Source of the DNA: Candidatus Cloacimonadota bacterium | GTDB taxonomy: Bacteria > Cloacimonadota > Cloacimonadia > Cloacimonadales > WRIO01 | Length of the DNA: 35,254 bases | Assembly: GCA_029564175.1 (NCBI GenBank) | Contig: JAKQQL010000350.1 | Location: forward strand, 1 to 35,254 | Direction of reading: 5' to 3' | Part shown: positions 16 to 31,213 of the stretch, one piece after another | How the letters are laid out: the number at the start of each line of letters is the position of its first letter | Position numbering within the stretch: the first letter of the stretch is position 1 | The notes under the pieces: model-generated | The model's database searches: none | Seen by the model: only the letters and a program-made list of their open reading frames with translations | Told to the model about the DNA's origin: nothing | Made by a program: the position numbers and the translations under genes

Positions 16-2481
16 TTGTCTAACTTTTCGCTTCAGCGAAGCATAATAATCGGCGGCACAATTTCCGTCCTGATACCCTTTGCTATTACGGCGGGACTTC
101 TTTACACCAGACTTTCAAAAGATCTTTTGAATCAGAGCAAAGAAAAGTCAGCTCTCATCGCAAAAGATCTGGCAGCCTTAGTAGATAACTCTCTTTCAAG
201 CGAAATAAAAATAGTATCAACAATATCAGCAGACAGAAATATCATCAACGAACTTAATTCGGGCAATTACAGCAGACTCCGCGACAATCTTTCATCAATG
301 TTCAATGAAATCGGTTACGATTACATATCTTTTTTTATTACCGACCGCAATGGAATTATAAAAGTAGATTTGCCCGAAGGTGTACGAATAGGAACAGACT
401 TATCTGACAGAAGCTATTTTTATACAGCCAGGCAAGGGAAAGCAAATATCAGCGACCCTATATTCGTTCGTGGTCCTTCGAGTTCCAAATGGACAGGTGT
501 TCCGATGCTGATAACAGCGGCTCCCATCCGGCTGAAAAATGAATTTATCGGCATGATTGCAATAACGCATGAACTCAACACAATCAGTTCAAAAATGAAA
601 ACAATAAAGCTCGGTGAAACCGGATATGCTTACATAATCAATACCGACGGAATGGCGATAATTCATCCTAATCAGGAATTAGTGATGACAGTTAATGTAA
701 ACAACGAACCGGGCATGAAGCATATTGCGAAATGGCTGAAAGACATGAAACCGCTCGCCGGAAATTATTCATTCCGCGGTAAGGAGAAAATTGCAGGTTT
801 CGCTCCACTGAAAACTAAAAACTGGTTTATAATTTTTACACAAGACCGCGATGAAATAATGAAACCCGTAAATAAAATGCTGATAAGCATCATGATAATT
901 GCTTTTTTTTTCGTCGGCATGGCAATAATTTTAATAATATTTTTCTCAAGGAGAATCAGCTCTCCTGTTGAAAAATTTGTGGATATACTTCATCAATTTA
1001 CTACTCATACAAATGAGTTTGTTCTCGGAATAGGTTCAGATAAAAAAATCATGTTTGCAAATCCTTCCGCATCACTTTTTTTCGGAAAGACAATCGAAGA
1101 ACTCATCGGAACAGACCCCGTTTATAATTTCACAGAAAGTAATAGCGATCAGGAAATATGGGAAAAACTTGACAGCGGAATACCGTGGACAGGACGGATA
1201 AGTCCGCAAACGGACAATCAGAAAGATAAAGTATTTGAAATAACAATTATACCGGTAAAAGATAACAAAGGTATTGCTTTCGGCTATCTGGAATTCGGAA
1301 GAGATATTTCAAATGAAATTAGTCAGGAAAAACGAATAAATCAGGCTCAAAAGATCGAAGCAATCGGCACACTCGCAGGCGGAATAGCTCATGACTTCAA
1401 CAATATTCTAACAGGTATTTACGGATTTATTGATTTAACTCTTCTTACGCTTGATAAACCTGATGAAGCGAAAAAATATCTGCAGGAACTCGAGAAAGCC
1501 GCAAAACGTGCAGGAGATCTCGTAAGACAAATACTTACATTCAGCCGCCACACAAAATCCGAATTGCGCGCAATTATACCGAAAACAATTGCAGAAGAAG
1601 TAATTAAACTTATTCGCGCTACAACGCCTGCGGAAATTTCTATTGAAACCAAACTTGAAAGCGAAACAGCAATAATGGCTGATCCGATCCAGATACATCA
1701 GGTAATGGTAAACCTCTGCACTAATGCAATACATGCTATAGGAAACAGCCACGGAATAATCAAAATAGAAATTAAAGACATAATTATAGACAGACTCTTT
1801 GCAGAAAATCATCCCGGCTGCAATCCCGGAAAACATGTTATTATAAGCATTTCCGACAGCGGATGCGGAATTCCCCCTGAAATTATGGATCATATATTCG
1901 ATCCTTTTTTTACAACAAAAACGAACGGAAAAGGAACCGGACTCGGATTATCTGTCGCCCATGGAATAATTCATAGTATCGGCGGAATAATAACAGTTTA
2001 TAGCGAACCAGGCAAAGGCACGGCATTCAATATTATCATCCCTGCAGCCGCCCCTGCTTTAAAAGAAACCGAATCTAATGAAAACGCCCTGCTCCCCGGC
2101 ATTGAAAGAATTATGCTGGTAGATGATGAGCACGCAATCGTTAAATCATTATCGAGCATATTGAGAAGTGCCGGATACAGAATTACTGAATTTACAGACA
2201 GCATGCAGGCAGCTGACAATTTTACAAATAATTATCTAGATTACGATATTGTTATAACCGACAATTCAATGCCGAAACTTACCGGAACTGATTTAGCAAA
2301 AGAAATCAAACGGCACAATCCAGAAATTCCGGTAATTCTCATGTCCGGTTTTGTAAACAAAAACATAGAAAACAGCGCCAAAGAACTCGGCGTTGATATG
2401 ATAGTAAATAAACCGATCAGTGCAGTCAAACTGACAGAACTTATACGAAGATTTTTTGATAATAATGGTAGCAATGGATAA
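16..2481 (+). CDS. Hybrid sensor histidine kinase / response regulator (periplasmic Cache-like domain, PAS, HisKA, HATPase_c, C-terminal REC)
   Basis: 821-aa ORF. An N-terminal TM helix, a ~250-aa extracytoplasmic domain and a second TM (MLISIMIIAFFFVGMAIILIIFF) precede the cytoplasmic part. H-box AHDFNNIL, G2 box GTGLGLSV and a C-terminal receiver (LVDDE...ITDNSMP...NKP) follow. Confidence 0.85.
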   Translation: MSNFSLQRSIIIGGTISVLIPFAITAGLLYTRLSKDLLNQSKEKSALIAKDLAALVDNSLSSEIKIVSTISADRNIINELNSGNYSRLRDNLSSMFNEIGYDYISFFITDRNGIIKVDLPEGVRIGTDLSDRSYFYTARQGKANISDPIFVRGPSSSKWTGVPMLITAAPIRLKNEFIGMIAITHELNTISSKMKTIKLGETGYAYIINTDGMAIIHPNQELVMTVNVNNEPGMKHIAKWLKDMKPLAGNYSFRGKEKIAGFAPLKTKNWFIIFTQDRDEIMKPVNKMLISIMIIAFFFVGMAIILIIFFSRRISSPVEKFVDILHQFTTHTNEFVLGIGSDKKIMFANPSASLFFGKTIEELIGTDPVYNFTESNSDQEIWEKLDSGIPWTGRISPQTDNQKDKVFEITIIPVKDNKGIAFGYLEFGRDISNEISQEKRINQAQKIEAIGTLAGGIAHDFNNILTGIYGFIDLTLLTLDKPDEAKKYLQELEKAAKRAGDLVRQILTFSRHTKSELRAIIPKTIAEEVIKLIRATTPAEISIETKLESETAIMADPIQIHQVMVNLCTNAIHAIGNSHGIIKIEIKDIIIDRLFAENHPGCNPGKHVIISISDSGCGIPPEIMDHIFDPFFTTKTNGKGTGLGLSVAHGIIHSIGGIITVYSEPGKGTAFNIIIPAAAPALKETESNENALLPGIERIMLVDDEHAIVKSLSSILRSAGYRITEFTDSMQAADNFTNNYLDYDIVITDNSMPKLTGTDLAKEIKRHNPEIPVILMSGFVNKNIENSAKELGVDMIVNKPISAVKLTELIRRFFDNNGSNG

Positions 2482-2722
2482 AAAGTTCTTACCGGACTTT
2501 TATTGACGGAATATAATTTGAAGATTCGATTTAACGCAGATACTTAATTTTTATTTCCGGAGAAATGTGTCAGGTTAATACCTTCATTGTACACAATTTC
2601 TTTATCCGTTATCTGATTCTGTTATTTTCACAAGATTATTAACAGCATTTTCCGCATTTGCATCACAAACAATTGATACAGAAAATAATATCATCAGAGA
2701 AATCTTTTTTAAAAGTTTCAAT

Positions 2723-4015
2723 TTATAATCTTCTGTCTAAAAATTTCTGAGATTTTCTGCTTAATTCAGGAAATACTATTTTCCGTATAGTTTCACTTTC
2801 TTCGAAAACAATCTTAGGCGCAACTCTCACCTTTGCACGTATCTTATCTTTAATTAATGATTCAATTTTCTGCTGATCCCCTTTTGAATTTACATGAATG
2901 AGAATCTCATCTGTTCCGATTTCATTTGTGAAAACTTCAACATAATAAATGATGACTTCATTAATTGAATCAAGTACATCATACAACGCAGGCGGATATA
3001 AGGTAGTACCTCTGTATTTTATCATATGATGCCGTCTTCCGATGATCGGTCCGAGTCTTAACGTATTTCTTCCGCATTCACATGGAGAAGAAAAATACTG
3101 GCAAAGGTCACCGGATCTGTAACGAAGAAGCGGCATCCCTTCAACACCGAGAGTGGTAAACACCAGTTCTCCTGTTTCACCTTCGCCGACATCATTTCCA
3201 TTCTCATCGATCACTTCAGCAATAATCAATTCAGGATGCAGATGTCCGCCTGTTCCGGCACCGCATTCTGTAAACGATGTTCCTTTTTCTGTAGAAGCAT
3301 ATGTTGAATAAAGCTTAATATTCCATTTATCTGTTATATTTTTTCCGAGAGTATTGTAGCTGAAATCGCTTTTTCTGATATTTTCACCAATGCATATTGC
3401 TTTTACTACTGAAGTTTCATTACAGTCAATACCATTATGTTCTGCATACTCAATCATCTTTAAAATGAAAGAAGGAACTCCGACAAGCGCAGTAGGTTTG
3501 ATTCGTTTAATCGTATCCCATTGAAGTTCAGGAAGTCCGTTACCCACTCTGATAATTCCCGCACCAAGTTTTCTTATGCCGAGAAAGTATGCAAGCCCCG
3601 CCATGAATCTTCTATCAAGAGTGCACATCAGCTGATAGATATCTTCATTTGAACCGTCTGCACATATGAATGATATATATTCGTTATATGCGAGACGGTC
3701 AAGATCTCTGTCAGTCAGAGCAAATGTAACCGGATCGCCTATTGTACCGGAAGTTGTCACATAATCTGAAATCTGATCTTTACTGATGCATATAAAATCT
3801 TCATTGCGGTTATGGAGATCATCTTTGGAAGTAAATGGAATTTTTTTCAGATCTGAAACAGTCTTTATATCAGAAGGATTGATATTATTACGCTGAAACA
3901 TTTCCTGATAAAATTTCGAATTACTGTTAAGATACAAAACAGTCTCAATGAGTTTTTCATTCTGGCATTTTTCTATCTCTTCTGCAGAAGCAAATTCTAT
4001 TTCAGGAATGCGCAT
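2723..4015 (-). CDS. Phenylacetate-CoA ligase (PaaK / F390 synthetase) family adenylate-forming enzyme; probable aryl-acid starter-unit activator
   Basis: 430-aa ORF with PaaK-like N-terminus (FTSKDDL), P-loop-like TSGTIGDPV and C-terminal lysine region. Last gene of the cluster operon. Confidence 0.8.
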   Translation of the reverse strand: MRIPEIEFASAEEIEKCQNEKLIETVLYLNSNSKFYQEMFQRNNINPSDIKTVSDLKKIPFTSKDDLHNRNEDFICISKDQISDYVTTSGTIGDPVTFALTDRDLDRLAYNEYISFICADGSNEDIYQLMCTLDRRFMAGLAYFLGIRKLGAGIIRVGNGLPELQWDTIKRIKPTALVGVPSFILKMIEYAEHNGIDCNETSVVKAICIGENIRKSDFSYNTLGKNITDKWNIKLYSTYASTEKGTSFTECGAGTGGHLHPELIIAEVIDENGNDVGEGETGELVFTTLGVEGMPLLRYRSGDLCQYFSSPCECGRNTLRLGPIIGRRHHMIKYRGTTLYPPALYDVLDSINEVIIYYVEVFTNEIGTDEILIHVNSKGDQQKIESLIKDKIRAKVRVAPKIVFEESETIRKIVFPELSRKSQKFLDRRL

Positions 4016-5689: not shown

Positions 5690-7196
5690 TGCGCACCTTT
5701 CTAATTATATTATTAAAACCTAATATCTCACCGCAGGTTAAAAGAGAACATATGGTTACACCAAGAACTCCATGAATACTAATATTTTGTCCCGTCATAT
5801 AAAGATTTGGAACCTTTGTTTTAGCGGGAATATAAGATGCCAGCGGATCATTGCAGTCTTTCATAACACCGTAAATTGAACCGCGGTATGTCCCGGTATA
5901 ATCACGATAAGTAAGAGGTGATGAAGTATAATAATTTTTTATTTTAGACCTGAAACCCGGGAAACGCTCTTCAACACTATCAAGCAGCTTTTCTGCTTTC
6001 TCTTTTTTAAAATCCCGGTAATCATCACCGCGCTGTTCAATATATGAATCATTCCATTTCTCTACATCATCATAACTCATATATGTCATAATAATTCCGC
6101 AGTCCGCCCAAACGTCAGATTTTGATGAAGCGGGTGTAAGCAGCATGTATCCTTTCGGCCATGTTTTATCATTATAATCCATTCCGCTCCATATATCATC
6201 TGTACCATAACAATAATAGTTGTGATTCATATACTTAAAACTGTTTTCTTTAAAAGAAGCGTATAAACAGAATGTTGATGGAGTATTCGGTGCTGATGAA
6301 ACCCGGCTGCGGTATGCATTTTTTATAAAAGATGAATCAGTCATCTTCAAGGTTTCTGCCGGATGAATATTTGATATGAAGCGTTTTCCTTCGATAACAT
6401 CTCCGTCAGCAGTTTTAATACCTGAAATTCCTTCCGGACTTGATATAAACTCGACAACTTTTTTTTTCGTTAATACAGTTCCGCCATTATTCCGTATTTC
6501 ACCTGCAAGAAGTGACGCAAGCTGATCTCCTCCGTCAACAAAACGGTATGCGCTTTCTATGAAATGATTATTGATTACTGCATGAATATAAATCGGAGAA
6601 ACATTACGCTCTCCGGCATAAAGAGGATTTGTTCCTCCGAGAATATTTCTTAACATTAAATTATCAGTACAGGAATCAATAAAACCTGAAGCACTCTGCA
6701 TCAGATATTCACTGCTTATAATATTCATCGCACTGTCAATTTCACGCAGATTATAAGGCTTGAGCGATGATGTAATTTCTTTAATCTTCGAAATATATTT
6801 ATCAAGTGCAGCTGCTTCTTCAGGAAAATATCCAAGCATTGTTTCTTTAAATCTGTCATAACCTGTTGCATAATCGTAATTTTTTGAATCATCATGAAAA
6901 TTGATACGGTGAAAACATCCGTCATCAAGCTTCTTCAGTTTCAGTTTATCCATTACATTGAAATATTTAAACAGTTGATTCAGCACCTGACCGTCATCCA
7001 TGCTTCCAATATAATGCATCCCCGTGTCGAATACGCAATTGTCTCTTTTAAAAGTCTGCAGACATCCGCCTATCTGAAAATGTTTTTCGACAACGCATAC
7101 ATTCAGACCTTCTTTTGACAGAATACATCCGCAAGCAAGACCTCCAAGTCCGCTGCCAACAATCACGACATCATAATTAGACATTTTATAATCCAT
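5682..7196 (-). CDS. FAD-dependent oxidoreductase, phytoene-desaturase (CrtI) family, paralog 2
   Basis: 504 aa. N-terminal Rossmann dinucleotide motif VVIVGSGLGGLACG...VVEK. Paralogous to the upstream gene. 8-nt overlap with the downstream gene. Confidence 0.75.
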   Translation of the reverse strand: MDYKMSNYDVVIVGSGLGGLACGCILSKEGLNVCVVEKHFQIGGCLQTFKRDNCVFDTGMHYIGSMDDGQVLNQLFKYFNVMDKLKLKKLDDGCFHRINFHDDSKNYDYATGYDRFKETMLGYFPEEAAALDKYISKIKEITSSLKPYNLREIDSAMNIISSEYLMQSASGFIDSCTDNLMLRNILGGTNPLYAGERNVSPIYIHAVINNHFIESAYRFVDGGDQLASLLAGEIRNNGGTVLTKKKVVEFISSPEGISGIKTADGDVIEGKRFISNIHPAETLKMTDSSFIKNAYRSRVSSAPNTPSTFCLYASFKENSFKYMNHNYYCYGTDDIWSGMDYNDKTWPKGYMLLTPASSKSDVWADCGIIMTYMSYDDVEKWNDSYIEQRGDDYRDFKKEKAEKLLDSVEERFPGFRSKIKNYYTSSPLTYRDYTGTYRGSIYGVMKDCNDPLASYIPAKTKVPNLYMTGQNISIHGVLGVTICSLLTCGEILGFNNIIRKVRNA

Positions 7197-7199
7197 CCA

Positions 7200-8687
7200 T
7201 TATTTAATTCCTATTTTTTGCATAAGTGAATCAAGCCCCAGTATACTGCCGCAGGCAACAATTGAATTTATCGTGACGCCAAGTACACCATGAAGACTCA
7301 CATTCTGTCCCGCTAAAAACAGATTCGGTATTTTCGTTTTAACTGAAAGATGGGAACGCATAAAATCTTTTGAATCATGAAATATTCCATACATCGATCC
7401 GCGTACTGTTGCCGTGTAATCGCGATAAGTGAGAGGTGTTGAAGTATAATATGAATCAATCATGCCGGAAAATCCTGGAAATCTTTCCTCGATAAGCTTA
7501 ATCAGAGCTTGTGCTTTTTTCTCTTTAAATGCTTTATAATCATCACCACGTTTGCCTACGGAAGTATCATTCCATTTTTCGACTTCGTCATATTTCATAT
7601 AGCAGAGAACATTTACACCTCGAGCCCATTTCCCGTCATCTGTCGGTGAAGCTACAGAAAGAAAAAAGTTTTCAGGCCATACAGCTTCATCATATGATTC
7701 AATAGTCCAGACATTATCATTTCTGTAATGATAATAATTCGATTCTTTGTAAGGAAAAGCATTTTCTTTCATGACGGCATAAAGACCGAAAACTGAAATT
7801 GTATTTTCAAGATTAGCAAGACGTTCAGCATAAGGTTTTCTTATATATCTATTGTCAATCATTCCAACCGTTAAAGATGGATGAATGCAGGAAATGAATT
7901 TATCACCTTCAACAATATCTCCGGAAGAAGTCAAAGCTCCCATTATCAATCCTGAATCATTATGAACATAACGCGTTACTTCATGATTTAATAATATCTT
8001 TCCGGAGTTATTTTCAATAAAATCTGCCAGAAAGTCAGCAATCTGACCGCTGCCGTTTACTATTTTATATGCACTTTCAATATATGAATGATTAACAAGC
8101 GCATGTATATACATCGGTGTACGATCAGATACTCCTGCATAAAGCAAATTGGATCCGGCCAGTACAGATTGAAGTTTTTCATTATCTGTAATTGATTTCA
8201 GAAAAGCGATTGTACTTGTAGTGAAGTAGACTGAATCAGGAATAGTATTCGAGGTATTCATCGAAAATGAATCATTAACCCGCCGAAGAGTTTCACAGTA
8301 TTTTTTTATGGCGTTTTTTTCATTAGGAAACTCAGCAGTTAAAATTTCCTGAAATTTATCATATCCTACAGCATGATGAAATTCTTTTCCGTCACTTCCG
8401 AAAGAAATAATGTCATATGCATCAGAATTCATTCTTGTAAAATTAAGAACATCCATCAGACCTAGATAATTAAAACACTTCTCAAGAATCTGTCCTTTAT
8501 CCAATGATCCGATATAATGCACTCCGGTATCAAAAACCACGCCCTTTCTTTTAAAACTCTGAAGACATCCGCCGATAAGTGAGTTCTTTTCAAGAATACA
8601 CACTTTCAATCCGTTTTTAGCGAGAATAGATCCACATACAAGTCCGGAAAGTCCGCTTCCGGTAATTACAACATCATACTTTGCCAT
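7200..8687 (-). CDS. FAD-dependent oxidoreductase, phytoene-desaturase (CrtI) family, paralog 1
   Basis: 495 aa. VVITGSGLSGLVCG...ILEK dinucleotide fold and a conserved C-terminal GQN.S.HGVLG motif shared with its paralog. Confidence 0.75.
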   Translation of the reverse strand: MAKYDVVITGSGLSGLVCGSILAKNGLKVCILEKNSLIGGCLQSFKRKGVVFDTGVHYIGSLDKGQILEKCFNYLGLMDVLNFTRMNSDAYDIISFGSDGKEFHHAVGYDKFQEILTAEFPNEKNAIKKYCETLRRVNDSFSMNTSNTIPDSVYFTTSTIAFLKSITDNEKLQSVLAGSNLLYAGVSDRTPMYIHALVNHSYIESAYKIVNGSGQIADFLADFIENNSGKILLNHEVTRYVHNDSGLIMGALTSSGDIVEGDKFISCIHPSLTVGMIDNRYIRKPYAERLANLENTISVFGLYAVMKENAFPYKESNYYHYRNDNVWTIESYDEAVWPENFFLSVASPTDDGKWARGVNVLCYMKYDEVEKWNDTSVGKRGDDYKAFKEKKAQALIKLIEERFPGFSGMIDSYYTSTPLTYRDYTATVRGSMYGIFHDSKDFMRSHLSVKTKIPNLFLAGQNVSLHGVLGVTINSIVACGSILGLDSLMQKIGIK

Positions 8688-27418: not shown

Positions 27419-27689
27419 AAAAAATTAATTATTAATCGCAAATTCATCAAAAATCACAAAAAGCAGATGGAATTACAAAATCAGAAAGAAATATTGCATT
27501 CTATTTACTATAAACTCTTATATTATGTAAATCTTCATGATTGCCACAATATATGAGTTTGAAAACTCTACTTCTAAGTCAATCATTTTTTATTTGCATT
27601 AATTAACTTTAAATCTGCTTACACTTACTTGGCTACAGAAATAAAATTATGTTCAGTATTTAATTAAGTCAAGACCAACAGCTTAGCAG

Positions 27690-28390
27690 GTCGCTTGAAC
27701 AAACCCGATAAGGGTTATTACTGGCAAGGCTAAAGCCCTCTGAACAGCTTCCAACCGCATGAATTCTCAGGCTACCCCTAAAGGGGTCTAGATTTTGCCT
27801 TTATTTGCCGGCTCACCCGTAAACGGGTCAGTAAATTCTTTTAACGAAAGTTGATCAGACATCACATCTTCCTGCAACTGGTTTCGTACATACTCCGCAA
27901 TACGACGTTCGTTCTTTCCGACCGTATCAACAAAATATCCACGGCACCAGAAATGCCGATTCCAATACTTATATTTCAAATTCGCATGTCGATCAAAAAT
28001 CATCAAACTGCTTTTACCTTTAAGATATCCCATAATTTCCGAAACACTGTACTTCGGAGGTATTTCAAGCAACATATGGATATGATCTGAACATGCCTCT
28101 GCTTCCAATATTTTAACCCCTTTTCTTTCTCAAAGAGTTCTCAATATTTCTCCGATATCTTTCTTTATTTGACGATTGATTATCTGCCTTCTGTATTTTA
28201 CGGCAAAAACAATATGGTACTTGCAATTCCAACTGGTGTGCGCTAATGTATTTTTATCCATTCGGATAAACATCCTCTGTCTTTTTGGTTTTGGTTGGTA
28301 GCCATAACCATTCTGACTCAGGAGGTTTTTTTATCTACTCATAGCTAAAGCTTTTTTAGAACCACCTGCAGAGCAGGTGGTTTTCATTTC
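27690..28390 (-). mobile_element. IS200-like (IS200/IS605 family) insertion sequence, about 700 bp, carrying a disrupted tnpA
   Basis: A Y1 HUH transposase gene is flanked by a perfect stem-loop about 105 nt upstream of the start (ccacctgc-aga-gcaggtgg, 28362-28380, extendable to 28358-28384). Sub-terminal hairpins lie just after the stop (acccc-taaa-ggggt at 27774-27787, plus others down to about 27700). The boundaries are approximate. Confidence 0.45.
27788..28261 (-). pseudogene. tnpA: IS200-type Y1 (HUH) transposase TnpA interrupted by an in-frame TGA
   Basis: The translation reads MDKNTLAHTSWNCKYHIVFAVKYRRQIINRQIKKDIGEILRTL*ERKGVKILEAEACSDHIHMLLEIPPKYS...YWNRHFWCRGYFVDTVG... The HxH motif and catalytic-Tyr region are present. 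The TGA at 28130-28132 sits where a Cys codon is expected. TGA is a genuine stop in neighbouring genes. Confidence 0.7.
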
Positions 28391-28398
28391 ACAAATAG

Positions 28399-28434
28399 AT
28401 AGATGCAGCATTTATCAGACTGCTGCATCTATTA
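28399..28434. terminator. Perfect 12-bp stem-loop followed by a T-rich tract
   Basis: The arms atagatgcagca and tgctgcatctat flank a 10-nt loop, followed by tagtattttatt. It lies just 3' of the 28443..29051 gene and next to the IS left end. Confidence 0.45.
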
Positions 28435-28442
28435 GTATTTTA

Positions 28443-29051
28443 TTACGGTTTCACAGATGCGTCTTTAATAGTTCGGAACCAGAAATTACGGAATCCGAAG
28501 CCTCCAGCATCATTAACTTGACGTTTTGAAGATATCACCTCGCGAGTTGCTATGTCGAAATATACAACATAAATAGAACCTGCTTTTTCTATCTTATTAA
28601 AACAATCTGCTATGAAAACCAGACCCATGCCGCTTTTGGATTTGAGCGTATATCCTTTAACCTGTTTTGCAATTGCTTCATTTGAAATATTAGATTTTTT
28701 TGTTGAATCATCCGGTCCTGGAAAAGGTTTAATCTGTGTTTTAGATGCCTTTTTATTTACTTCAAATACACCTTCAACATCAACCTCAATTTTCTTGTCA
28801 ATTTCAGACGAGATTTTTTTCAATCTTTCTTTGACAAATAGATTATTCCATTTATCAAGCATGCCGGGAAAAATTTCATCAGGATTATTAAAATCCGGGC
28901 CAGCCATTTTAACTAATGAAAAATCTATACCAACCCATATTATTGAATCAACAGCGCTCAATGGACTTTTATCTTTACCGAAGCCAAGACCTGAAACAAC
29001 AACTGCAATAAAGACAATAGCCGTGTTAAAAAATTTTTTTTTCATAACCAC
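28443..29051 (-). CDS. Hypothetical secreted protein (signal peptide, Lys-rich)
   Basis: 202 aa with N-terminal hydrophobic leader. The antisense 148-aa ORF (28612..29058) is Ser/Leu/Thr/Pro-rich and judged spurious. Confidence 0.55.
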   Translation of the reverse strand: MVMKKKFFNTAIVFIAVVVSGLGFGKDKSPLSAVDSIIWVGIDFSLVKMAGPDFNNPDEIFPGMLDKWNNLFVKERLKKISSEIDKKIEVDVEGVFEVNKKASKTQIKPFPGPDDSTKKSNISNEAIAKQVKGYTLKSKSGMGLVFIADCFNKIEKAGSIYVVYFDIATREVISSKRQVNDAGGFGFRNFWFRTIKDASVKP

Positions 29052-29269
29052 TCCATAATTTTTTTTAGCTAAACTGAAATAAATTCAATTATTAAACAAT
29101 ATTTCAAGCATTTTTCAGGCAAAAGTTCAAACTTTTTTTGAGTTTTAAAACAACTTCAGCTTAATTACCTTACCTTATTACGCGCAATCCTCTCTCCAGC
29201 AATTCAAACAGATCAAAAGATTTAACCGGATATTTTTCCTTATTACACAATTTTTTAGGCAAAGTCTCC

Positions 29270-29870
29270 ATTTTAAATCTCTGAAGCATCGTTTCAGCGC
29301 TCCGAAGTGTCTCTTAGAGAAATATAGGAGTGTCTCGAAGACATAATTGAATGTCATTTCTAAATTTAAAATTATGAAGCATAATATAATTAAGCGTTTA
29401 CTTAGGGAAGCGGTCAAAACGCTTAATTATATTATAAAACGAATGAATCTGACAAAATCCAAAGTGCGCAAAGCACTTCAAATAAAGATGAATGAAATCT
29501 ACAATAACTAAAACATCTGCCGAAGGCAGATACCAAATAAGCTGAGCTTTCGCAATCCGCTGAAAGCGGTGCGAAAATCGAAGCGTAAAAAAGTAGGATG
29601 AGCGAGTGCTCAAATCAGAAGATGAATGATATCAGCTAACATCAAAACGTCTGTCAAAGACAGACACTAAGGCGGTAGGAAAACCGCCATCGAGGCGCTT
29701 CAATATCCGACAGGAAGTCGGAATAAAAGCGCCTCGTTAATAAGCGCAGATTTTCGCAATCCTCCGAAGGAGGTGCGAAAGTTATGTCGCGACAAAGAGC
29801 GGGCGGGGATTTCAAAAGGGGCGGGGCTGGCGACTGAAGCCCGGTCCCTTTTGATCTTTTTTTATTTCTT
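29270..29870 (-). other. Hairpin-dense, GC-enriched non-coding region; candidate structured RNA or array of palindromic repeat units
   Basis: Back-to-back stem-loops at 29649-29665, 29671-29688, 29693-29734 (nested), 29752-29780 and 29785-29794. Further stem-loops lie at 29515-29531 and 29548-29577, among others. Modules 29548-29577 and 29752-29780 share TTTCGCAAT-stem-loop-stem-T-GCGAAA with compensatory inner-stem changes. Read on the minus strand, the loops are C(UUCG)G tetraloops. The only ORFs are short and Cys/Arg/Leu-rich. Confidence 0.35.
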
Positions 29871-30743
29871 CCCGAAAATTCCCTTAACAGTTTCAAGAAT
29901 ATCAGGCGGAATCATTATAAACTTTGCATTCTGTGATTCACTGATTTTAGTGAGACCCTTTACATATTCCTGTCCGATCAAATAAACAAGAGGGTCTCCG
30001 CCGGTAGATTTCAGTGATTCGGAAACCATTCTGACAGCATTAGCTTCAGCTTCAGCAAGTCTTTCGCGTGCTTCTGCATCTCTCATTGCCGCTTCCTTTC
30101 TCGCTTCCGCTTCCAAAATCTGAGCAAGCTTAACACCCTGAGCTTCTTTCTCCGCAGCTTCTTTCTTTGCTTCAGCTTCAAGAACACGTGCGCGTCTTTC
30201 ACGTTCTGCCTTCAGCTGAAGAGCCATCGCTTTAGCAAGTTCTGCCGGAGGCGCAATATCTTTAAGTTCAACACGCGTGATTTTAGTTCCCCACGAATCC
30301 GTAGCGTCATCAAGAACAACAAGAAGTTCTTTGTTTATTTTTTCACGCAGTGAAAGCGATTCATCAAGAGTCATTTTACCCATTATCGAACGGAGTGTTG
30401 TCTGGGCAAGATTCATTATCGCCCATTCAAGATCCTGAATTCCGTAAAAGGATTTATAAGGATCCATTACCTTAAAGTAAACCACTCCGTCAACTTCAAG
30501 TATCGCGTTATCAGAAGTGATTATTCCCTGGCGGGGCATATCAAGAACACGCTCACGGATATCCACTTTTTTAGAAATTTTCGATAGAAGCGGATTAATA
30601 AGATTTAAACCGGGATTCAAAGTTGCCACGTATTTCCCTAGTCTTTCAACAACCCAGTTTTCTGCCTGCGGTACAACACGCACGCATTTAAAAAAAATGA
30701 CAATAGCAAAAAACCCAAGTGCTACAATAAGAACTTTCTCCAT
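29862..30743 (-). CDS. SPFH / band-7 (stomatin-prohibitin-like) membrane protein
   Basis: 293 aa. N-terminal TM, an SPFH core (RVELKDI...) and an Ala/Glu/Lys/Arg-rich coiled-coil tail. Confidence 0.85.
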   Translation of the reverse strand: MEKVLIVALGFFAIVIFFKCVRVVPQAENWVVERLGKYVATLNPGLNLINPLLSKISKKVDIRERVLDMPRQGIITSDNAILEVDGVVYFKVMDPYKSFYGIQDLEWAIMNLAQTTLRSIMGKMTLDESLSLREKINKELLVVLDDATDSWGTKITRVELKDIAPPAELAKAMALQLKAERERRARVLEAEAKKEAAEKEAQGVKLAQILEAEARKEAAMRDAEARERLAEAEANAVRMVSESLKSTGGDPLVYLIGQEYVKGLTKISESQNAKFIMIPPDILETVKGIFGKK

Positions 30744-31213
30744 TATTTACCTCCATTTACTTTTTTCACAAGAAGCTTTATTCCGCGGGATTCAAGAACC
30801 TCAACCTCTGAACCTTCAGGAATTGATTCTTCAGATTCAGCCTGCCAGATTTTCAAACTGTGATAGACAGAATACAATTCAACCTCGCCCGAACGATGAG
30901 GTTCGATAGCAGTTTTTGCAATTCCGCGCAATTTTAATAATGTCGGATCACGCGATTCGTCAGTTAAATTTTTACCAAAATGTTTCTTGAAATACAAATG
31001 CCATAAAAGAAGAAAAAGAAGTGAAGAACACAGAAATATTATCCAGGGAAATGTTCCGTCTGAGGGAACGCCGGCAAAAACGCAAATTGAAGTAATTACG
31101 GCACCGACACCGAACCAGAAAATAACAAATCCCGGAACTAAAATTTCCAACGCAATAATAATCAGTCCGGCAGCAAGCCAGAGTAAAGCTGGAGAAGGCA
31201 TAACACACTCCAT
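30743..31213 (-). CDS. NfeD-family membrane protein (partner of SPFH protein)
   Basis: 156 aa. Three N-terminal TM helices and a C-terminal OB-fold-like domain. Its stop overlaps the SPFH start by 1 nt, the classic nfeD-SPFH operon arrangement. Confidence 0.8.
   Translation of the reverse strand: MECVMPSPALLWLAAGLIIIALEILVPGFVIFWFGVGAVITSICVFAGVPSDGTFPWIIFLCSSLLFLLLWHLYFKKHFGKNLTDESRDPTLLKLRGIAKTAIEPHRSGEVELYSVYHSLKIWQAESEESIPEGSEVEVLESRGIKLLVKKVNGGK

Follow-up and report, generated by a model that had tools for sequence, protein, structure and literature searches.

We report here that the hairpin-rich block at positions 29270-29870 of the 35,254-nt contig JAKQQL010000350.1 (the whole stretch is called the window below), which lies in the spacer 3' of an operon coding for NfeD and SPFH proteins, is almost certainly one copy of a dispersed family of repeats. 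The block had been predicted from its letters to be an RNA-level element of the operon or, alternatively, a palindromic repeat family resembling repetitive extragenic palindromic (REP) sequences and bacterial interspersed mosaic elements (BIMEs). That observation was largely right, and the explanation it had offered as the alternative is the one that is right in broad terms.

We scanned one genome per species of bacteria and archaea with the module pattern TTCGCAATCC-N(7-11)-GGTGCGAA and obtained 112 hits, where about 87 were expected by chance according to our own arithmetic. The excess consisted of 22 hits, all with a 9-nt gap (TTCGCAATCC-N9-GGTGCGAA), which were found on different contigs of four Spirochaetota metagenome-assembled genomes (MAGs): AMR_MDS_3480 with 8 exact modules, UR.bin167 with 6 (one of them the SPFH locus), AMR_MDS_4958 with 6 and OH_SDB_63 with 2. 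The chance hits fell in unrelated taxa and lacked the flanking context of the family. Scattered copies at unrelated loci had been named beforehand as the observation that would speak for a repeat family, and the 22 exact modules in four MAG species are of precisely this kind.

All 22 copies have homologous flanks with the parts in the same order. From the 5' end, these are a ATGAATGA box, the hairpin AAAGTGCGCWAAGCACTT, a AAGATGAATGA box, an A-rich stretch ending CCTAAAC, and a hairpin referred to as H1; H1 is followed by the linker ACCAAATAAGCNGAGC, the module, ATCGAAGCG(T)AAAAAAGCC and one of two alternative tails, and hairpin doublets in varying number, for example AAAGGCGAAGCCTTT, TTGCATGATCCATGCAA and CCGACACTCGG, form the right end. 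The full element is about 0.45-0.8 kb long, has a fixed polarity, and is composed of perfect palindromes with 5-9 bp stems, mostly 3-nt loops and A-rich linkers, with optional hairpin domains inserted at fixed points. A covariance model built on H1, linker and module retrieved the 22 copies at 80-95 bits, and detected nothing further in the window, in 'empty' SPFH loci or in loci of REP-associated tyrosine transposases (RAYTs). When about 157 kb beyond the seed regions were scanned by k-mers, two more arrays came up, or approximately 1 per 60-80 kb of the sampled sequence. REPs are small extragenic palindromes of 20-40 bp that occur in many copies. In the arrays the palindrome units measure 13-43 nt and are extragenic, exact modules number 2-8 per fragmentary MAG, and the arrays occupy gaps of 0.3-1.4 kb.

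With regard to their genomic surroundings, the gene to the right points away from the array at 9 loci and toward it at 9, and the array neighbours are diverse housekeeping genes, including those for pyruvate kinase and phosphoglycerate kinase. Among 99 flanking open reading frames (ORFs) no Pfam family was enriched, and no transposase was seen save in one insertion sequence (IS) that truncates a copy; a tie to a neighbouring protein family or transposase was accordingly rejected. Also rejected were small conserved ORFs starting from the ATGAATGA boxes, for which the stops of other copies lie inside hairpin loops and no frame is conserved; a viral origin, the five viral-contig hits being coding sequence without the hairpin; and a replication-strand bias, 16 of 24 copies lying on the C-rich strand, which is not significant, with some loci sampled repeatedly (L080/L082, and SPFH in the window, L070 and L011). 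Searches with blastn against plasmid and phage collections gave no family match. Loci L044 and L115, considered as orthologues, are alike only in the array and are therefore paralogous copies; L080/L082 is the sole verified orthologous pair.

Several further observations concern the composition of the arrays. Multi-hairpin domains of 130-170 nt were seen in the loop of the family tail or 5' hairpin in L069 (about 2500-2650), L140 (60-200) and L063 (about 100-290), and can be read as nested insertions or as expanded domains. One H1 variant, GTCCGCTGAAAGCGGAC (H1 of L125), has the same sequence as the inner hairpin of the module, CCGCTGAAAGCGG, and a chimera of both is located at about 1640-1680 of L036, from which we conclude that different hairpin types share sequence and recombine. 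A longer 5' module, CCAACCGGCTTACGGATAAGCGGCCTTATG..., is common to several arrays (L027 1850-2215, L044 about 6990-7365, and L115; two of these in the same MAG), so that the family has more module types than those of the window. Many array copies (in L030, L038, L045, L063, L080, L094 and L125) also stand no more than a few hundred bases from the end of their contig, which suggests that array repeats break short-read MAG assemblies.

In blastn comparisons of the spacer with the family loci, every part of 29375-29861 recurred at other loci and 29052-29374 did not. The segment 29375-29861 is wholly family material, namely a chimeric copy of about 1.5 units that is truncated at the SPFH stop codon (Table 1). 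Over 107 nt, the window tail (29752-29858) has 89.7% identity to that of a full copy in L122, with a tail-A hairpin core that is apparently identical in the two printed sequences; since the L122 homologue runs on with further hairpins, we consider that the window copy was cut off at the stop codon.

Table 1. Parts of the array copy and of the adjoining spacer, in window coordinates
Feature	Position	Strand	Remarks
Non-family spacer	29270-29374		TGTC/GACA and GACATAAT motifs; no likeness to other family loci
Degenerate counterpart of family left-end box	about 29352-29369		within non-family spacer
Family 5' hairpin, ACGCGTTT...AAACGCGT type	29381-29435	+	inverted repeat I1; perfect 19-bp stem here (19 nt, 100% complementary); homologues in L070, L074, L081, L030, L045
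Box 1 (CGAATGAA), hairpin AAGTGCGCAAAGCACTT (29462-29478), box 2 (AAGATGAATGA, 29485-29495)	29441-29495	+	order repeated in L063, L068, L070, L074, L081, L125
Hairpin H1, ATCTGCC GAA GGCAGAT	29515-29531	+	covarying across family
Conserved linker ACCAAATAAGCTGAGC	29532-29547	+	nearly invariant in 22 copies
Module M type 1, TTTCGCA AT CCGCT GAA AGCGG TGCGAAA	29548-29576	+	covariance-model match 29514-29576, 95.3 bits
Post-module linker ATCGAAGCGTAAAAAAG and GAGCGAGTGCTC hairpin	29577-29618	+	common to L011 and, up to ...AAAAAAG, to all type-1 copies
Second, partial unit: box 2' and hairpin H1' (GTCTGTC AAA GACAGAC, 29649-29665)	29619-29670	+	direct repeat D1, 73% identity to 29485-29536; covariance-model match 29648-29671
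Optional insert domain: hairpin GGCGGTAGGAAAACCGCC, then composite hairpin CGAGGCGCTT...AAGCGCCTCG around TCCGACAGGAAGTCGGA	29671-29736	+	inverted repeat I12; same domain between H1 and AATAAGC linker in L036, L069, L075, L080
Linker TTAATAAGCGCAGAT and module M type 2 (inner stem CCTCC GAA GGAGG)	29737-29780	+	covariance-model match 29739-29780, 41.6 bits
Type-2 3' flank GTTATGTCGCGAC and tail-A hairpin (29812-29854, conserved loop GGCGACTGA), then T run	29781-29861		inverted repeat I3; terminator-like match; covarying stems

The block had been described as consisting almost entirely of consecutive stem-loops. We observed that 29260-29875 folds far better than shuffled sequences on both strands (z = -10.2 on the plus and -7.8 on the minus strand), and that 5 of the 18 distinct perfect hairpins of the window (stems of at least 6 bp) lie within 29462-29722. 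The hairpin density is thus confirmed; the left 100 nt (29270-29374) are sequence of another kind, outside the repeat family. The two covarying modules are present (29548-29576 and 29752-29780, with no further copy in the window and a chance expectation of 0); their 4 differing positions make up two fully compensated pairs, G-C to T-A and T-A to C-G, and each module is preceded, as described, by AATAAGC and a hairpin, the second hairpin being at 29706-29722. On the other hand, the block was said to be far more GC-rich than its surroundings, and here the contrast proved to be modest: 41.1% as compared with a window mean of 35.8% (standard deviation 3.4 among 600-nt windows; +1.6 standard deviations), a value that 6% of 600-nt windows reach. 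The SPFH gene has 42%, and the block is richer than the remaining spacer (29.7%). The C(UUCG)G tetraloops noted on the minus strand are an off-register reading, in that the stems around the CUUCGG strings are perfect palindromes with 3-nt loops, GAA on the plus and UUC on the minus strand. Read as tetraloops, they would lose the next pair, and the loops predicted by RNAfold are triloops.

The non-family spacer is common only to the L006-type strain, where GACATAAT, present once in the window, occurs three to four times (some 500-650 nt ahead of the SPFH stop codon in L141 and L143). The TGTC/GACA half-sites and the GACATAAT motif, which lie between array and next gene, may represent a repeat of the operator type. 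Inside the array, on the minus strand at 29426-29455, there is a near-consensus promoter-like site (TTGTCA-18 nt-TATAAT, 11/12 matches), directed at the next gene, of 200 aa; its -10 element lies within an arm of the 19-bp palindrome, and the site shows no conservation among other copies.

We fetched the same locus from relatives at graded SPFH identity. Contigs with an identical SPFH protein formed two groups, one of which is 100% identical to the window; the second has the part corresponding to 29375-29576 in common (90%) and one module, with other hairpins elsewhere and a different downstream gene. The relative with 96% SPFH identity (L011) has a 417-nt version beside a convergent DUF362 gene. 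At 91% identity (L013) the gap after SPFH is 31 nt and contains a single terminator hairpin, at 82% (L015) it is 32 nt and is followed by a RAYT-like gene, and at 76% (L016) there is no gap. A metagenome scan anchored on the SPFH 3' end gave two more alleles; among strains with identical SPFH 3' ends there are at least 5 array alleles, and the neighbour on the left is one of four different genes. Synteny breaks at the SPFH locus, which exists with many array alleles, and the SPFH operon does not have the block as a conserved feature. The module of L006/L070 is a hybrid, with a type-1 5' flank and a type-2 core and 3' flank; an allele like that of the window would give rise to it if recombination in the shared TTTCGCAATCC deleted the stretch between its two tandem modules. 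Separately, we considered whether the L011 homologue of 29568-29629 is the 3' end of the DUF362 gene, so that the repeats would be gene-end relics. We rejected this, as the frame is wrong, the protein can be aligned with its L013 orthologue all the way to the end, and the stop codon lies just before the repeat. In L015, the RAYT-like gene at 2437-3060, coding for a Y1 transposase of 207 aa, occupies the same position, 32 nt after SPFH, that the array occupies in the window, and its flanking hairpins are different.

These comparisons bear directly on the first explanation in the original prediction, by which the block is RNA of the adjacent operon, that is, a cis-acting structured 3'UTR, a small RNA, or operon-specific tandem attenuators or terminators. 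The block does stand directly after the SPFH stop codon, and several minus-sense hairpins are followed by short U runs. Yet it is absent from the operons at 91%, 82% and 76% SPFH identity (L013, L015 and L016), its content varies among strains with identical SPFH, the same sequences stand beside unrelated genes in either orientation (9:9), so that neither position nor orientation is kept, and Rfam has no match. We find the proposal of a cis-acting RNA of the NfeD-SPFH operon scarcely credible, and as a locus-specific element it is refuted; a generic terminator role of the last hairpin survives.

We then asked which molecule is likely to fold. H1 has about a dozen sequence variants; both partners have changed in 5 of its 7 pairs, pairing is kept in 99.3% of cells, and G-U pairs account for only 2 of 380 stem cells (0.5%). 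In the tail hairpin the loop GGCGACTGA is constant and 8 pairs show compensated changes; in L080/L082, with flanks that are 92% identical, there are compensated changes within the array, and the 5' part has also been replaced. The stem variants are discrete and are common to unlinked loci and to different species, and much of the 'covariation' is thus between subfamilies that are exchanged among loci. The claim that structure is under selection stands as to constraint, which the strong family-wide covariation supports, but not as to its RNA nature, which covariation does not show.

Perfect hairpins occur at 8.9 per kb in the elements, as compared with 2.6 per kb elsewhere. Half of the loops are of 3 nt. 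We counted 17 GAA loops; of 58 triloops, 25 read GNA, and the loop counts as listed include none of the complementary TNC type. A control sequence was symmetric. The linkers are A-rich on the GNA-loop strand. In curated stems the wobbles read on this (plus) strand were 5 G-T and 0 A-C, and an unfiltered census gave 20:20. RNA folding energies showed no strand preference across 24 copies (10/24, p = 0.63), and such a preference was dropped. Two other RNA-level candidates were rejected: a long-range helix CCUAAACC/GGGAUGGG, which has one-sided changes only and is missing in half of the copies (those with tail B), and a CsrA-type GGA-loop sponge, since the GGA frequency, by a rough count of our own, is about what composition predicts. 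Loops of the d(C-GNA-G) type form exceptionally stable DNA mini-hairpins (PMC13037366, PMC3201870). The C-GAA-G or C-GNA-G context of such d(GCGAAGC) and GNA-triloop mini-hairpins is the commonest loop context of the arrays, on one strand, and the literal heptamer GCGAAGC occurs in several modules, although d(GCGAAGC) is a structural motif and not a genetic element. The GNA-loop strand hints, by this analogy, at a single-stranded DNA form of the arrays. With their perfect Watson-Crick stems, 3-nt loops and equal folding of the strands, the arrays look more like DNA palindromes than RNA helices.

The same data must be weighed against the possibility that the arrays specify multi-copy, large (about 0.4-0.7 kb), modular structured non-coding RNAs, transcribed from the plus strand (antisense to SPFH), ending at the tail hairpin and serving as trans-acting molecules or protein scaffolds. 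Such RNAs would fit the fixed order and polarity of the modules, the conserved single-stranded A-rich linkers beside covarying stems, the domain expansions in hairpin loops, the plus-strand bias of the curated wobbles, the plus-strand T run after the 3' hairpin, and the very low folding z-score. They fit less well with the rarity of G-U pairs, the equal folding of the strands and the dominance of perfect palindromes with 3-nt loops; the single long-range helix candidate failed as described above; many copies, including that of the window, are truncated or chimeric; and no conserved promoter was seen on the plus strand, the sole conserved promoter-like box being directed outward on the other strand.

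Nor was a match in Rfam obtained. With a match defined as a covariance-model score at or above the gathering score, the window gave 0 hits, 29000-29950 searched at E up to 10 gave only sub-threshold matches to miRNA-type hairpins, and 19 other family loci gave only tRNAs elsewhere; the families tested included tmRNA, RNase P, OLE, GOLLD, ROOL, HEARO and raiA. ARAGORN detected no tRNA or tmRNA in the window. We therefore rejected tmRNA, tRNA and any Rfam family, in agreement with the earlier remark that no signature of the tmRNA or RNase P type could be matched. On balance we regard a family of large structured RNAs as unlikely, albeit worth keeping in mind.

The alternative in the original prediction was a REP/BIME-like family. 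The dispersed repeat is borne out by the 22 copies; membership in REP/BIME in the strict sense, meaning palindromes mobilised by a RAYT of the Y1/HUH family, is not. In its favour, the arrays are mosaics of short extragenic palindromes, the strand-specific loops fit a single-strand mechanism, and Y1 genes are present in the lineage, as an IS200-like remnant in the window (27788-28273) and as the RAYT-like gene after SPFH in L015, whose homologues are named RayT. Most REPs, however, are defined by an unpaired GTAG or CGTC tag at the palindrome end (PMC3733652), and among 115 distinct hairpins we counted GTAG 0, CGTC 1, CTAC 0 and GACG 1. A BIME consists of regularly spaced REPs in alternating orientation (PMC2817692), and the loop asymmetry of the arrays indicates a single, head-to-tail orientation. 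In a REP/RAYT system, two cognate REPs in inverted orientation flank the RAYT gene; of the arrays, 21 copies had no Y1 gene within 3.5 kb, the flanks of the RAYT-like loci L015 and L136-L139 contain no family module, so that association with RAYT is negative in the few loci covered, and the arrays string together more than 8 hairpin types in a set order, with linkers that are long and conserved. We consider strict REP/BIME membership very unlikely.

Full copies start with a conserved box, GTCAAAYYCAAAATAAAC, located 190-320 nt before the module; it was seen at 8 of 24 loci, and the window copy has only a degenerate version. No inverted copy of this box was found at the other end with up to 4 mismatches allowed, that is, there is no terminal inverted repeat as in a miniature inverted-repeat transposable element (MITE). 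On the other strand the box reads GTTTATTTTGGaTTTGACA, followed by a 17-nt non-conserved spacer and the conserved cATAAAgATTTAA (also written CATAAAGATTTAA). Its elements are an upstream A/T-rich box, a -35 TTGACA and a -10-like CATAAA, in the form of a sigma70 promoter directed out of the element, and in the seven copies with a known flank (L030, L038, L068, L074, L075, L081 and L122) the left ends all (7/7) face the start of an unrelated gene, 90-280 nt beyond. The predicted promoter is either a part of the element or the marker of a preferred insertion site. Insertion sequences may carry outward-facing promoters at their ends, and the array left end with its outward promoter-like box is similar in this respect, although arrays have neither transposase nor inverted repeat.

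A more speculative proposal, to which we give only a tentative place as improbable on present data, is that the arrays are a new class of autonomous-looking non-coding element. In one version (a), they may be a portable 'insulator plus promoter' cassette, of which the GNA mini-hairpins are read as single-stranded DNA by some copying or recombining enzyme, and the outward-facing promoter may be co-opted by neighbouring genes. In the other version (b), they may be a large, multi-copy modular RNA whose domains can be gained or lost. Both versions would account for linkers being conserved above stems and for every hairpin being intact in each copy.

The explanation we prefer, and which we hold to be somewhat better than an even choice, is that the block is a DNA-level mosaic element, reshuffled by recombination, that lends a terminator to the operon. 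The arrays would persist and be reshuffled at the DNA level, with copies undergoing ectopic recombination or gene conversion with one another, possibly with the participation of an enzyme working on single-stranded DNA, and hairpin formation on the GNA-loop strand would keep the stems complementary. At SPFH, the last hairpin with its flanking A/T runs would be the intrinsic terminator of the NfeD-SPFH operon, and the array would insulate the next gene. The tail hairpin at 29812-29854 has the form of a GC-rich hairpin with a U tract in a consensus scan, and tail A is a probable two-way terminator.

Several points weigh against this explanation. A mobilising enzyme, a target-site signature and a clean empty/filled polymorphism were not found, so that mobility can at most be inferred, and the copy number per genome is an estimate from fragmentary MAGs. 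A fixed polarity and linkers conserved above stems are equally expected of a structured RNA, which the hairpin-loop expansions (L063, L069, L140) and the 5 G-T to 0 A-C wobbles also fit. The local terminator role comes from the consensus scan, and U tracts are found at few hairpins, the intrinsic-terminator form (5 or more T, or A, among the 8 neighbouring nt) being present in 8 of 115 in the plus sense and 13 of 115 in the minus sense.

As to the setting in the window, the SPFH gene (29862-30743) and the NfeD gene (30743-31213) are both on the minus strand, as is the next gene (28443-29051), the 200-aa product of which has no Pfam match. The spacer between SPFH and this gene is 810 nt long and contains only short, unsupported ORFs, so the absence of a credible ORF noted earlier is upheld. 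We assign the window to an uncultured Spirochaetota bacterium of anaerobic-digester and activated-sludge metagenomes; sequence records name the SPFH protein 'stomatin-like protein [Spirochaetota bacterium]'. An IS200-like Y1 transposase gene lies 1.2 kb further on, at 27650-28440; it is split into two minus-strand ORFs (27788-28108 and 28130-28273), is probably a pseudogene, and is flanked by hairpins unrelated to the array family. Between about 19350 and 27418 the minus strand carries a group of genes reminiscent of a specialised lipid pathway, of the aryl-polyene or another kind, with an aromatic amino-acid lyase, a short-chain dehydrogenase, two ketoacyl synthases, an acyl carrier protein, a lipid-A-type acyltransferase, a B12-radical SAM enzyme, an ApeP-like protein and a thioesterase. 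These Pfam assignments were read from contig L001, which is 100% identical to the window across the compared 1.7 kb (28301-30000) and matches it in the ORF sizes of the cluster.

Our observations contain a warning for RNA discovery, in that strong compensatory covariation and extreme folding z-scores can stem from a dispersed palindromic repeat, so that a specific RNA cannot be deduced from paralogous copies in a single locus. The family apparently shapes the genomes of its hosts, as is indicated by the SPFH breakpoint with its array alleles and by the contig-end copies, which suggest assembly fragmentation. The arrays are a candidate for a new way to spread or maintain non-coding DNA in an uncultured spirochaete lineage, and if they are functional, their terminator and promoter parts would be usable as genetic parts.

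Among known systems, the BIME/REP clusters of Proteobacteria are similar in being extragenic, non-coding and lineage-specific palindrome mosaics in which complementarity is kept; they occur in high copy, can act as terminators and promote rearrangements, all of which may apply to the arrays too (PMC2817692, PMC3733652). The arrays differ from them in having no GTAG/CGTC tag and no cognate RAYT that we could find, in their head-to-tail hairpins of many types in fixed order, and in their long conserved linkers, 0.45-0.8 kb units and defined left end. REPINs (REP doublets forming hairpins) likewise form within-genome families of hairpin variants with compensated substitutions, but a REPIN is one long hairpin made of two inverted REPs, with one RAYT gene, whereas the arrays consist of many short independent hairpins (PMC3116915). 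The BOX elements of Streptococcus pneumoniae (boxA-boxB(n)-boxC) share with the arrays conserved outer modules and a variable number of inner modules, and are interspersed, intergenic, strongly folding and without a transposase of their own (PMC3049150); they belong to another phylum and have no sequence similarity to the arrays, which are longer, contain 3-nt-loop mini-hairpins and have no terminal inverted repeats. The combination of head-to-tail GNA-loop mini-hairpins, conserved linkers and an outward promoter-like box, with neither tag nor transposase, has not been described together. In summary, the arrays are an interspersed mosaic palindromic repeat, BIME/BOX-like in kind and outside REP/BIME and MITE proper, and they constitute a previously undescribed family that is restricted to a lineage of few uncultured digester spirochaetes.

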